A stretch of DNA of 64,000 bases from Escherichia coli (lineage in GTDB: Bacteria; Pseudomonadota; Gammaproteobacteria; Enterobacterales; Enterobacteriaceae): the NCBI RefSeq assembly GCF_003334765.1, contig NZ_QOWT01000023.1. One strand, written 5' to 3'. Below the pieces are notes generated by a model. It saw only the letters and a program-made list of their open reading frames with translations, did not search any database and had not been told where the DNA came from. Numbering within the stretch: the stretch's first letter is position 1; every line of letters begins with the position of its first letter. Positions 42,541 to 64,000 of this stretch are shown one piece after another. The translations under genes and the position numbers were made by a program.

Positions 42541-42554
42541 GGCGGTGAGGGGGA
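42541..42554 (-). other. tRNA-Ser (serW) 3'-end fragment = island attachment-site core copy; no intact tRNA here
   Basis: tggcggtgaggggg is the reverse complement of the last 14 nt (incl. CCA) of E. coli tRNA-Ser(GGA). It sits exactly where the serW 3' end is expected, about 344 bp after clpA. The tRNA body is replaced by island DNA. Confidence 0.5.
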
Positions 42555-42600
42555 CCGCCTGAAATAAATCTGACTTAATCCGGGGGTGTTATATAATTTC

Positions 42601-42649
42601 ATTATAAACAATGTATTATACTTTTTTCTGTCCGATATTATCTAATGTA
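42601..42649 (+). repeat. direct repeat copy A upstream of int
   Basis: attataaacaatgtattatacttttttctgtccgatattatctaatgt; near-identical core to copy B at 44084-44105. Confidence 0.6.
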
Positions 42650-42713
42650 TTCTTAGTGAAGCGAGAGACTAATGGCATACTGGATGGCATACTAGAGTAA
42701 CAGGAATTAGCGT

Positions 42714-43931
42714 ATGGCAGTTTTGACGGATACTAAAGCAAGGCATATCAAACCTGATGACAAACCATTGCCCCATGGGGGAATTACAGGACTGACTCTT
42801 CATCCTTCTTCAGTAAAAGGGCGGGGTAAATGGGTTTTTCGTTATGTAAGTCCGGTGACACAAAAAAGGCGTAATGCTGGATTGGGAACTTATCCTGAGG
42901 TCAGTATTGCTGAAGCTGCACGTGCTGCCCGGATAATGCGAGAGCAACTTGCTGCAGGTGATGACCCACTGGAGATTAAAAAGGCTGAAGCTGAAAAAGT
43001 TGTTATCCCAACATTTGCCGATGCAGCCAGGCGTGTACATGCTGAATTGTCACCGGGATGGGAAAATCCAAAGCATGTCAGGCAGTGGTTATCGACGCTT
43101 GAAAATTACGCGTTTCCTCAACTGGGAGCAAAAACGCTGGATTCGATTACGGCTGCGGACGTGGCAGAAACACTGCGTCCAGTCTGGTTAACCTTGTCAG
43201 AAACGGCAAGCCGGGTTAAACAGCGCATTCATGTTGTTATGCAGTGGGGATGGGCGCACGGTTTTTGTGTGGCAAACCCTGTTGATGTGGTTGGCCATTT
43301 GCTTCCTCAGCAGACAAGAGGACGTGATGAACACCAACCCGCAATGCCCTGGAGGCAGTTACCGCTTTTTGTGGCGACCAGTGTGTATACAGATGAACCT
43401 TATAATGTTACCCGGGCACTGTTATTAATGGTGATACTTACAGCAACCCGCTCGGGCGAAGCCAGGGGAATGCGCTGGGCTGAAATTGATTTTCATAAGC
43501 GGATATGGACTATACCCGCAGAAAGAATGAAAGCCAGGATACAGCATCGTGTTCCTTTATCCCGGCAGGCCATTCACATTCTGGAAAATATACGTGGTTT
43601 GCATGATGAACTAGTGTTTCCTTCTCCCAGAAAGCAGCAGATCCTTTCAGATATGGTGTTGACGAGTTTTCTGCGTAAAAAGAAAGCCATCAGTGATATA
43701 CCGGGGCGAGTTGCCACGGCACATGGTTTTCGCTCAACATTCAGGGACTGGTGTAGTGAACAGGGGTATTCGCGGGATCTGGCGGAAAGGGCGCTCGCTC
43801 ATACGCTGAAAAATAAGGTTGAGGCGGCATATCATCGTACTGATCTACTGGAGCAGCGTGTACCGATGATGCAGGCATGGGCGGATTATGTGATGTCTCA
43901 ACTTGCTAAAAACACTAAGGAATTCGCTTAG
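42714..43931 (+). CDS. P4-family tyrosine integrase
   Basis: 405-aa ORF with N-terminal MAVLTDTKARHIKPDDKPLPHGGITGLTLHP and C-terminal catalytic region (...AHGFRSTFRDW...RALAHTLKNKVEAAYHRTDLLEQRVPMMQAW) typical of tRNA-site phage integrases. Confidence 0.9.
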   Translation: MAVLTDTKARHIKPDDKPLPHGGITGLTLHPSSVKGRGKWVFRYVSPVTQKRRNAGLGTYPEVSIAEAARAARIMREQLAAGDDPLEIKKAEAEKVVIPTFADAARRVHAELSPGWENPKHVRQWLSTLENYAFPQLGAKTLDSITAADVAETLRPVWLTLSETASRVKQRIHVVMQWGWAHGFCVANPVDVVGHLLPQQTRGRDEHQPAMPWRQLPLFVATSVYTDEPYNVTRALLLMVILTATRSGEARGMRWAEIDFHKRIWTIPAERMKARIQHRVPLSRQAIHILENIRGLHDELVFPSPRKQQILSDMVLTSFLRKKKAISDIPGRVATAHGFRSTFRDWCSEQGYSRDLAERALAHTLKNKVEAAYHRTDLLEQRVPMMQAWADYVMSQLAKNTKEFA

Positions 43932-44045
43932 TTTCATGGACTGGCATACTCAGAGTAGCCAAATGGTTACTGCTTTCTTTTTTGAAAAATAAATGCAATG
44001 CCAGTTCGTAATGAAAACCTGGCATTGCACTCAGCTAACGATTAT

Positions 44046-44105
44046 TCATTATTATAACGAATAATACACTTGTGATAATTTATTTTTTGTCCGATAGTAT
44101 CTATA
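44046..44105 (+). repeat. direct repeat copy B downstream of int
   Basis: attattataacgaataatacacttgtgataatttattttttgtccgatagtatctatagt. Confidence 0.6.
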
Positions 44106-62500: not shown

Positions 62501-63608
62501 TATTCTGCTGGTTGATTTTCTGAACAAACCCACCGGAGAAAAACTGGATATTGAACTGGTGAGTGCACCGGGGAACAGCAGTAAGGATGTTTTTAAAGGA
62601 AGTGAACAGGCAATAGGTTTCAGCAATGTCACACCTGTTATTACAGCTATAGACGCCGGAGATAAAACAACATGGAACCTGACCGGGTACAGGATGGCAG
62701 AAAATCCTGCCGCAACCCAAAGTGCCTCAGGCCTTGCATCTGTGGGGTACAAATCATTTTTGAGTGAGGTCAACAACCTGAATAAACGTATGGGTGACCT
62801 GCGTGACATCAATGGTGAAGCTGGCGCATGGGCACGTATCATGAGCGGAACCGGCTCTGCCGGTGGTGGTTTCAGTGACAACCACACACATGTTCAGGTC
62901 GGTGTCGACAAAAAACATGAGCTGGACGGACTGGATTTGTTTACCGGCTTCACTGTCACACACACTGACAGCAGTGCCTCCGCCGATGCTTTCAAAGGTA
63001 AAACAAAATCTGTGGGGGCCGGACTCTATGCTTCCGCCATGTTTGATTCCGGTGCCTATATCGACCTGATTGGTAAGTATGTTCATCATGATAATGAGTA
63101 CACCGCAACCTTTGCCGGACTCGGAACCCGTAATTACAGTACGCATTCATGGTATGCCGGTGCTGAAGCAGGCTACCGCTGTCATGTCACTGAGGATACC
63201 TGGATTGAGCCACAGGCAGAACTGGTCTACGGTGCTGTATCCGGTAAACAGTTTGCATGGAAGGACCAGGGGATGCATCTGTCCATGAAGGACAGGGACT
63301 ACAATCCGCTGATTGGTCGTACCGGTGTGGATGTGGGTAAATCCTTCTCAGGTAAGGACTGGAAAGTGACAGCCCGTGCCGGTCTGGGCTACCAGTTCGA
63401 CCTGCTGGCTAACGGCGAAACCGTATTGCGGGACGCATCTGGTGAAAAACGCATCAAAGGTGAAAAGGACAGCCGTATGCTGATGTCCGTTGGCCTGAAT
63501 GCAGAAATCAGGGATAACGTCCGCTTTGGACTGGAGTTTGAGAAATCCGCCTTTGGTAAGTACAACGTTGATAATGCTGTCAACGCTAACTTCCGTTACT
63601 CGTTCTGA
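59517..63608 (+). CDS. SPATE-type serine-protease autotransporter (class-2, Pic/Vat/Tsh-like)
   Basis: 1363-aa ORF with extended signal peptide MNKIYALKYSSLTGGLIAVSELSKKV, protease serine motif GDSGSPLYAW, pertactin-like passenger, and conserved C-terminal beta-barrel (...EVNNLNKRMGDLRDINGEAGAWARI...NANFRYSF). Exact SPATE allele not assigned. Confidence 0.9.
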   Translation: MNKIYALKYSSLTGGLIAVSELSKKVTGKTGRRLMTVSLVLSVTLSALPGKASTVSAEIPYQTFRDFAENKGVFTPGVTGIEINDNNGNKVGVLDVPMLDFSSLSRDGHTTLIHPGYVVSAKHSGLQSVSSATFGYDQIYKIVDNNLAGIDFSAPRLNKLVTEVIPADIQGKDKFNNNRYTAFYRAGVGSQYIRYANGTDKLLQAYTPDKAYLTGGTVGKPYYTHYNGMKMISANPGNTFDKNQGPLASYGQIGDSGSPLYAWDNIDKKWVLTGVTLHNYGVKGARNDWLLIPHDFISQKLQDDLKPIIVASPEENILRWEFDRSRGTGTLSQGEKIFSMTGSVNGNANTGNNLVFSGNEGKIELVSSVEQGAGYLQFDKDYTVLTNNNSTWTGAGIIVGDEANVKWGVNGIAGDYLHKVGSGTLTVNGHGENKGGLKVGDGVVVLEQQPDANQKQQAFSHINIASGRATVKLNGANQVDADNISWGYRGGKLDLNGYDFTFSRLQAADYGAEISNDNQTDKSIVTLSLSPLKAEEINVVVNNINIMGGAGKPGDLYYTTFDGNYYLLKSNRYGSALFGALNNQSEWQRLGKNKEKAIGLYTQMKMQESDLLSYIYHGKITGNTSVEIPKLAGNDILTLDGSVSISGDMSKQDGALIFQGHPVIHAGQTVSASQSDWENREFSLNNLNLNNADFSLSRNAFMNGNIRAVNQSTVIIGGDTVFTDKNDGTGNDVISVEGKSAAAGTSSYTGHITLEQKSALDIRDNFRGGVTSEDSHINVSSSSVLFSDASSFINSSLNIHKGGALTAQGGLFTSGSIDIGDASLLLTGTPVNSDDAAFLPTINMADGGFKLMSDSSVLKARDQASVVGDIISDKQATISFGTESGKEGILSEKASRGLAVGLLSGFNTAYRGAIHAPSASATMNNTWWQLTGDSSLRSLKNTGSMTYFTGSAANKAFHTLTVDELTTNGTAYAMRTDLKNADKLVVNQKLSGKDNILLVDFLNKPTGEKLDIELVSAPGNSSKDVFKGSEQAIGFSNVTPVITAIDAGDKTTWNLTGYRMAENPAATQSASGLASVGYKSFLSEVNNLNKRMGDLRDINGEAGAWARIMSGTGSAGGGFSDNHTHVQVGVDKKHELDGLDLFTGFTVTHTDSSASADAFKGKTKSVGAGLYASAMFDSGAYIDLIGKYVHHDNEYTATFAGLGTRNYSTHSWYAGAEAGYRCHVTEDTWIEPQAELVYGAVSGKQFAWKDQGMHLSMKDRDYNPLIGRTGVDVGKSFSGKDWKVTARAGLGYQFDLLANGETVLRDASGEKRIKGEKDSRMLMSVGLNAEIRDNVRFGLEFEKSAFGKYNVDNAVNANFRYSF

Positions 63609-63621
63609 TACTCCGTATTCA

Positions 63622-63641
63622 AAAGGGCCTGAGGGCCCTTT
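63622..63641 (+). terminator. hairpin after autotransporter stop
   Basis: aaagggcc-tgag-ggcccttt; weak downstream T-run. Confidence 0.4.
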
Positions 63642-63729
63642 ATGCTCAGGACCTGCCGCCCAGGTATACATTTCCGGGGTATCAGTGAGGTGTACTGGCA
63701 ATAGCGGACACTACCATTTGTTCTTTTTT

Positions 63730-63870
63730 TAAGCAGCCATCTGATGATATTTTTCCCTGAAGGCTGCCGGGGAGATATTCCCCAGACGAGAGTGACGACG
63801 CTGACGATTGTAGAAAATCTCAATGTATTCCCGTATTACTGATATGGCTTCATCCCGGTTATTAAAACGA
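63730..63870 (-). pseudogene. IS3-family transposase C-terminal fragment
   Basis: Minus-strand translation ...RFNNRDEAISVIREYIEIFYNRQRRHSRLGNISPAAFREKYHQMAA is a DDE transposase C-terminus, cut by the IS66-family terminus at 63887. Confidence 0.65.
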
Positions 63871-63886
63871 TGTAAGCGTCAACGGA

Positions 63887-64000
63887 GGTAAGCGTGCAGC
63901 AAGAACCGTATTGACGGGGATGTGTTATTCAGTCGGCAGTGCTACGCGCCAGGGGAGCAGTTCGCCGACCCGGTTTATCGGCCAGTCGGCTATGACGTCA
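63887..64000 (-). repeat. second copy of IS66-family terminus (identical to 52514-52627), running off window end
   Basis: 114 bp identical to the IS66 end at 52514-52627, same orientation; implies another IS66-family copy beginning here. Confidence 0.85.

Follow-up and report, generated by a model that had tools for sequence, protein, structure and literature searches.

Organization of the clpA side of serW

We examined a 64,000-nucleotide stretch of Escherichia coli DNA (contig NZ_QOWT01000023.1 of RefSeq assembly GCF_003334765.1; the whole stretch is called the window here) in which the chromosomal gene clpA is followed by a CRISPR remnant, the transcription terminator of the tRNA-Ser(GGA) gene serW, a 14-nt copy of the 3′ end of that tRNA gene, and a gene for a tyrosine integrase. 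The coordinates of all features are collected in Table 1. An island is inserted here at the 3′ end of serW, and positions 42540-42553, which hold the 14-nt copy, are very probably the clpA-side attachment junction of an integrative island of the SRL-PAI/OI-43/OI-48 family.

The 14-mer, TGGCGGTGAGGGGG, is the reverse complement of the terminal 14 nt of the serW tRNA-Ser(GGA), CCA included. It occurs exactly once in the window, on the + strand at 42540-42553, and about 0.0005 exact copies would be expected by chance per 64 kb on both strands. If up to two mismatches were allowed, the only further match was at 24258, in unrelated chromosomal DNA; an exact search of 42554-64000 found no second core copy. 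An earlier reading of the window, made from the sequence alone (the sequence-only reading), had stated that only the last 14 nt of the tRNA are present where the serW 3′ end would lie. The exact match and the alignment to K-12 bear this out, except that its start of 42541 is one base too far to the right; the true start is 42540.

When the window was aligned to the empty clpA-serW-infA locus of K-12 MG1655, the two were identical from the clpA end through the CRISPR remnant, the serW terminator and the last base of the 14-mer (100% identity over 41000-42553), and divergence started at 42554, where K-12 runs on into the body of serW. The junction is a hybrid, consisting of chromosomal flank, core and an integrase-bearing island arm, and it breaks exactly after the 14-mer relative to the empty K-12 site, as the recombination product proposed in the sequence-only reading should. 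A 421-nt junction probe was then searched against 5426 complete E. coli genomes. The full probe was covered in 223 of them, O157:H7 EDL933 included (95.7% identity over the probe), and genomes with an empty site matched only probe positions 1-214, ending exactly at window position 42553. Many phylogroup-A-like genomes share this chromosomal flank at 100% identity.

A hidden intact tRNA at the junction was considered and rejected. ARAGORN called 0 tRNA or tmRNA genes in the window and Rfam returned no tRNA match there at gathering score. No complete tRNA was found by either program in 42541-42630, where finding one would have contradicted the sequence-only reading; 14 of the 88 nt are present, and no complete cloverleaf tRNA-Ser overlaps 42540-42630. 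The position of the missing tRNA body is given by the orientation of the fragment: its 3′ end, on the − strand, faces clpA, so by synteny with K-12 the body should lie to the right, towards infA. The sequence-only reading had reached this conclusion from the adjacency of the integrase; the conclusion holds, and the orientation of the fragment, not the adjacency, is what decides it.

Two features to the left of the core belong to the resident chromosome. The serW terminator, a stem of AGCTCG/CGAGCT followed by a T-run on the − strand (an A-run on the + strand), is now parted from the tRNA body. The CRISPR remnant comprises repeats at 42409-42436 and 42469-42496 (GTTCACTGCCGTACAGGCAGCTTAGAAA and a degenerate copy) around one 32-nt spacer, and as it is identical in K-12 it is native and outside the island.

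Integrase and attachment-site sequences

The integrase gene starts 160 nt to the right of the core, in line with the earlier claim that the two adjoin. Its product, 405 aa and apparently intact, matches the Pfam models Arm-DNA-bind_3 (PF13356), Phage_int_M (PF22022) and Phage_integrase (PF00589), and carries the catalytic motifs TATR246, H337GFR340, LAH363 and AAY373, which supply the expected R246, H337, R340, H363 and Y373. Judged by these three domains and the R..HxxR..H..Y residues, it is a P4-family tyrosine integrase. It shares 97% amino-acid identity over 400 aa with the integrase of OI-43 in EDL933, and by this sequence comparison it is a close relative of the OI-43 and SRL PAI integrases, lying as they do beside a cryptic tRNA fragment.

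An inverted repeat, GGCGGT-GAGGGGG-ACCGCC, spans the boundary between core and island. Its 6-bp arms are separated by a 7-bp spacer, its predicted DNA fold has an energy of -6.5 kcal/mol (z = -2.8), and three strains with related islands, AF58, NCTC9082 and EDL933, share the ACCGCC arm. Inverted arms around a short spacer are the usual layout of core-type sites at the overlap region of tyrosine recombinases, and the arms here are likely core-type integrase sites around a 7-bp overlap region, with the crossover falling within GAGGGGG.

Between the core and the integrase gene lies a composite module consisting of TGTCCGATA, 35 nt, TGGCATAC, 4 nt and a second TGGCATAC, the two TGGCATAC repeats being 12 nt apart. 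For the motif TGGCATACT, 0.46 occurrences are expected in the window and three were observed, each of them flanking the integrase gene. A 21-nt version of the first motif of the module, TTTTYTGTCCGATAKTATCTA, likewise occurs on both sides of the gene. In the relatives, an identically spaced module is found in the opposite island arm, at -120/-76/-64 from the core compared with +76/+120/+132 in the integrase arm. The intervening sequence shows no conservation from one module to the other. These modules are plausible binding sites for the arm-binding domain of the integrase or for an AlpA-family protein, and the shared spacing may represent the arm-type binding architecture of this integrase family. 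No published description of the module was found in the literature covered, which did not include the key attP paper. An AlpA-family helix-turn-helix protein is encoded further to the right, and from its family assignment it is a candidate excision (recombination directionality) factor.

The far end in relatives and the alternatives

The sequence-only reading had placed the intact serW and the right junction beyond position 64000. In the relatives this is the case. In AF58, which is 98.2% identical to the window over 41000-64000, the island occupies 48.5 kb at serW; its far end is an intact 88-nt tRNA-Ser, with infA, aat and cydCD next in line. OI-43 of EDL933, about 87.5 kb long, has the same right end, where a second 14-mer completes the intact serW beside infA. 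In NCTC9082, the island lies in serX, spans about 77.5 kb and finishes with an intact tRNA-Ser beside ghrA; over 21.5 kb it differs from window 42491-64000 by 20 mismatches and 1 gap (99.9% identity). The right junction, ...cttataatc-TGGCGGTGAGGGGG-ggattcgaa..., completes an intact tRNA-Ser in all three. The left copy of the 14-bp repeat is present in the window and the right copy in these relatives. The repeat is no longer than 14 nt, as the bases flanking the two copies differ on both sides. Immediately beyond the regenerated tRNA, in the downstream direction, the island DNA of each relative carries a hairpin (GCGCATGTTA...TAACATGCGC) and a T-run on the tRNA strand, so that the island seems to supply a replacement terminator while the native one stays at the clpA side. 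A far-junction probe, joining the right end of the island to serW and the flank on the infA side, was fully covered in 282 of the 5426 genomes.

The serX locus of NCTC9082 contains two copies of the terminator followed by TGGCGGTGAGGGGG, 181 bp apart, the first of them inside an annotated RtT small RNA (sRNA) element. As the second copy is the one that received the island, the locus presents candidate cores in tandem.

To follow the island past the end of the window, a near-identical scaffold, JH660541.1 (GCA_000158415.2), was located through look-ups of the integrase and EspI proteins; its record coordinates equal those of the window plus 263. It differs from the window by 3 mismatches over a 21.2-kb stretch and by none over the 14.5-kb overlap of a second stretch, and it runs 9.6 kb beyond position 64000 through IS66 remnants, two scaffold gaps and iha. 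Within those 9.6 kb no tRNA and no exact core copy were found, and the sole core match with 2 mismatches lies in IS66-derived DNA. The island in this scaffold is therefore longer than 31 kb, which, together with the lack of a second core up to 64000, upholds the earlier estimate of more than 21.5 kb.

These data fit the following mechanism. The P4-family integrase would recombine the circular island, through its 14-bp core, with the identical final 14 nt of tRNA-Ser(GGA). As the island carries its own 14-nt copy, insertion would rebuild a complete serW at the infA-side end, and the original serW 3′ end and its terminator would remain behind on the clpA side, separated by 160 nt from the integrase gene. 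Excision would be the reverse reaction, carried out by the integrase and probably by the AlpA-family protein. The island is expected to continue past 64000, as the islands of relatives span about 48 to 88 kb, and its far end in the source genome is predicted to read ...CTTATAATC-TGGCGGTGAGGGGG-GGATTCGAACC..., completing the 88-nt tRNA-Ser(GGA). Published work on the family agrees with this scheme. Perfect 14-bp TGGCGGTGAGGGGG repeats bound both OI-43 and OI-48; they correspond to the final 14 bp of serW and serX, the Shigella SRL PAI has identical ones, and the published figures draw int beside a cryptic ser'W at the clpA side and an intact serW beside infA (Bielaszewska et al., PMC3064760). 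The 14-bp border is described again, with a size of 87,549 bp for OI-43, in PMC9729726. Precise excision has been demonstrated experimentally for OI-43, OI-48 and the SRL PAI (PMC3064760, PMC7545054), restoring an intact serW in 1.8e-3 of cells in the case of OI-43 (PMC3064760). Excision of the SRL PAI requires int, and serW is an alternative site for it (reviewed in PMC7545054).

Three points weigh against reading the junction as one end of a complete and mobile island. In the source genome, the far junction was not reached, and the near-identical scaffold could be followed only to about the equivalent of window position 73.6 kb. A circular or tandem attP junction, represented by a synthetic right arm, core and left arm, was present in no complete E. 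coli genome, which leaves the current mobility of this copy unproven. The island interior is full of insertion sequence (IS) remnants and, since IS-mediated losses of island ends have been published (PMC3064760), the far end could be truncated. If so, the junction would be real and an IS-mediated deletion or rearrangement would have removed the right core, perhaps along with serW. The dense IS66, IS3, IS1 and IS200 debris at 52.5-59 kb and after espI is compatible with such an event, as are the IS-mediated internal deletions and the one lost island end on record (PMC3064760). That documented loss, however, struck the integrase side rather than the tRNA side; every match sampled from the ranking of the far-junction search across the 5426 genomes retains the full tRNA-Ser and the infA-side flank, and the tRNA at the island end is intact in the three relatives inspected. 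We consider truncation improbable.

It is more improbable still, and contradicted by the K-12 alignment, that the 14-mer is part of a native RtT-like repeat containing a copy of the tRNA 3′ end instead of an integration product. The terminator-plus-14-mer unit in the annotated RtT element at serX of NCTC9082 provides a precedent, but at the serW position K-12 has the 3′ end of the tRNA itself, colinear to the last base, the DNA that follows the 14-mer in the window is the integrase arm of a known island, and Rfam gave no RtT match in the window. Least credible of all, and rejected, is a meaningless chance match: apart from the short length of the 14-mer nothing speaks for it, and against it stand the low chance expectation given above, the syntenic serW position, the exact point of divergence from empty sites and the identity with a published attachment core. 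An attachment junction of the serW island family remains by far the best account of the locus.

The island is 99.9% identical to the serX island of NCTC9082, compared with about 98% to the serW copies of other strains, and it may be a very recent arrival at serW, a possibility we hold with some doubt. The comparison suggests that the integrase may still transfer complete islands from one paralogous tRNA-Ser gene to the other or from strain to strain.

Island content and comparison with known islands

The remaining features of the island are listed in Table 1 together with those of the junction.

Table 1. Features at the serW junction and in the adjoining island, in window coordinates.
Feature	Coordinates	Strand	Basis
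clpA, chromosomal gene left of the serW site	39920..42196	+	ORF list; scaffold gene calls; AF58 and K-12 annotation
Native type I-F CRISPR remnant	42409..42496	+	Rfam CRISPR-DR4, repeat family D3
Original serW transcription terminator	42497..42539	-	sequence reading; matches K-12 just downstream of serW
Core / direct repeat TGGCGGTGAGGGGG, 'cryptic ser'W'	42540..42553	-	sequence reading; K-12 alignment; repeat in PMC3064760
Inverted repeat across the core/island boundary	42541..42559		sequence reading
Integrase-proximal arm module	42624..42695	+	TGTCCGATA at 42629, TGGCATAC at 42673 and 42685
int, P4-family tyrosine integrase, 405 aa	42714..43931	+	Pfam; comparison with EDL933
Third TGGCATACT, downstream of int	43942	+	
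Second copy of 21-nt motif TTTTYTGTCCGATAKTATCTA, downstream of int	44083-44103	+	
DUF3987/YfjI-family helicase-like protein, island-family backbone gene	44101..45630	-	Pfam DUF3987; PHROG DNA helicase family; annotation
AlpA-family helix-turn-helix protein	45602..45889	-	Pfam Phage_AlpA, E = 2e-17; PHROG 'excisionase and transcriptional regulator'
611-aa protein, no recognisable domain, variable integrase-proximal slot	45990..47825	+	library searches
YagK/YfjJ-domain protein, backbone gene	49201..49764	+	AF58 and EDL933 annotation
AEP primase-polymerase fused to SF2 helicase ('TOTE' primase), backbone gene	49919..52279	+	Pfam; PADLOC; NCBIfam
IS debris, about 6.5 kb	52552..58965		AF58 and NCTC9082 annotation; scaffold gene calls; Rfam
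espI, serine-protease autotransporter (SPATE), virulence cargo	59517..63608	+	annotation of relatives; Pfam Peptidase_S6 and Autotransporter; NCBIfam autotransporter barrel
IS3/IS66 remnants, island running past the window end	63729..64000	-	AF58 and NCTC9082 annotation; scaffold with IS66 remnants and iha

The cargo in the window consists of espI and IS debris, not of tellurite-resistance genes. For the 611-aa protein, no match was found in NCBIfam, PHROGs, PADLOC or Pfam, and PDB matches were at chance level only (E of at least 0.02). EDL933 carries a different, unrelated-looking 605-aa hypothetical gene in the same slot, which may therefore be a variable position for cargo or defence genes. 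The TOTE primase matches the Pfam models AEP-TOTE, DNA_primase_S, DEAD and Helicase_C as well as PADLOC PrimPol (E = 1e-143), and RefSeq labels it a 'TOTE conflict system' protein; it could be the replication protein of the island or a component of a conflict system. The debris between it and espI comprises IS66 remnants, an IS3-family pseudogene, an IS200/IS605 tnpA, a group II intron fragment, IS1 and an IS3-family element, and gave Rfam matches to STnc490, STnc100 and group-II-D1D4-3. The STnc100 and STnc490 matches, which we take to be IS200-associated RNAs, lie directly upstream of the IS200/IS605 tnpA and overlap its start, and the 170-nt group II intron D1-D4 fragment lies nearby; these matches fall within 55373-55717 and 56423-56593.

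Two further genomes provided observations on the same neighbourhood. In GCA_021502855.1, islands with the identical 405-aa integrase occupy both serW and serX, as in EDL933, and the serW copy has an IS66 element between clpA and int. GCA_048604985.1 contains a separate small element just upstream of clpS that is absent from the window; it encodes a D5-type primase, SSB, a major capsid protein, a head decoration protein, AlpA and a Nu1-like small terminase, and from this gene content looks like a capsid-forming phage satellite.

The junction is an ordinary, textbook case of an attachment junction of an already described kind and raises no new biological question. Its main value lies in annotation: the left boundary of the espI island is fixed at 42554 and its core at 42540-42553, the island is placed in an integrase family for which experimental measurements of excision exist, and the place and appearance of its other end are predicted. 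It also illustrates how one integration module brings varied cargo (tellurite resistance, drug resistance, SPATE proteases, aerobactin) to two identical tRNA-Ser genes.

Among the known islands, OI-43 of O157:H7 EDL933, the tellurite resistance and adherence island, shares with the island described here the site between clpA and serW/infA, the 14-bp repeat, an integrase in the same position (400 aa, compared with 405 aa here), and a backbone of YfjI/DUF3987, YagK/YfjJ and AEP-TOTE primase genes; its right end reads as in AF58 and NCTC9082. It differs in carrying ter and ure clusters, whereas here espI is present and the 611-aa orphan is the integrase-proximal gene. The SRL PAI, likened through its published description, has the identical repeats, and the OI integrase gene is 15 bp shorter than that of the SRL PAI and 99% identical to it in nucleotides (PMC3064760), so that the extra 15 bp of the latter match the 405-aa length found here; it differs in its fec iron-uptake system and multidrug-resistance genes and in lying typically in serX. 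OI-48/SpLE1 and the NCTC9082 island also occupy serX, a paralogous tRNA gene about 170 kb away, and the latter differs in its aerobactin genes. The LPA (locus of proteolysis activity) island of LEE-negative Shiga toxin-producing E. coli (STEC) has cargo in common with the present island, namely espI, inside the window, and iha, which the scaffold shows just past the window end (PMC9729726), and the present island was rejected as a member because LPA integrates at selC and the espI island lies in serW. Elements of the P4 and CP4-57 type share the arm-binding, core-binding and catalytic domains of the integrase and an AlpA-family partner nearby, and likewise target the 3′ end of a tRNA gene that the element regenerates. 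In CP4-57 of K-12, the integrase lies beside the intact tRNA; here it lies instead beside the displaced tRNA fragment.

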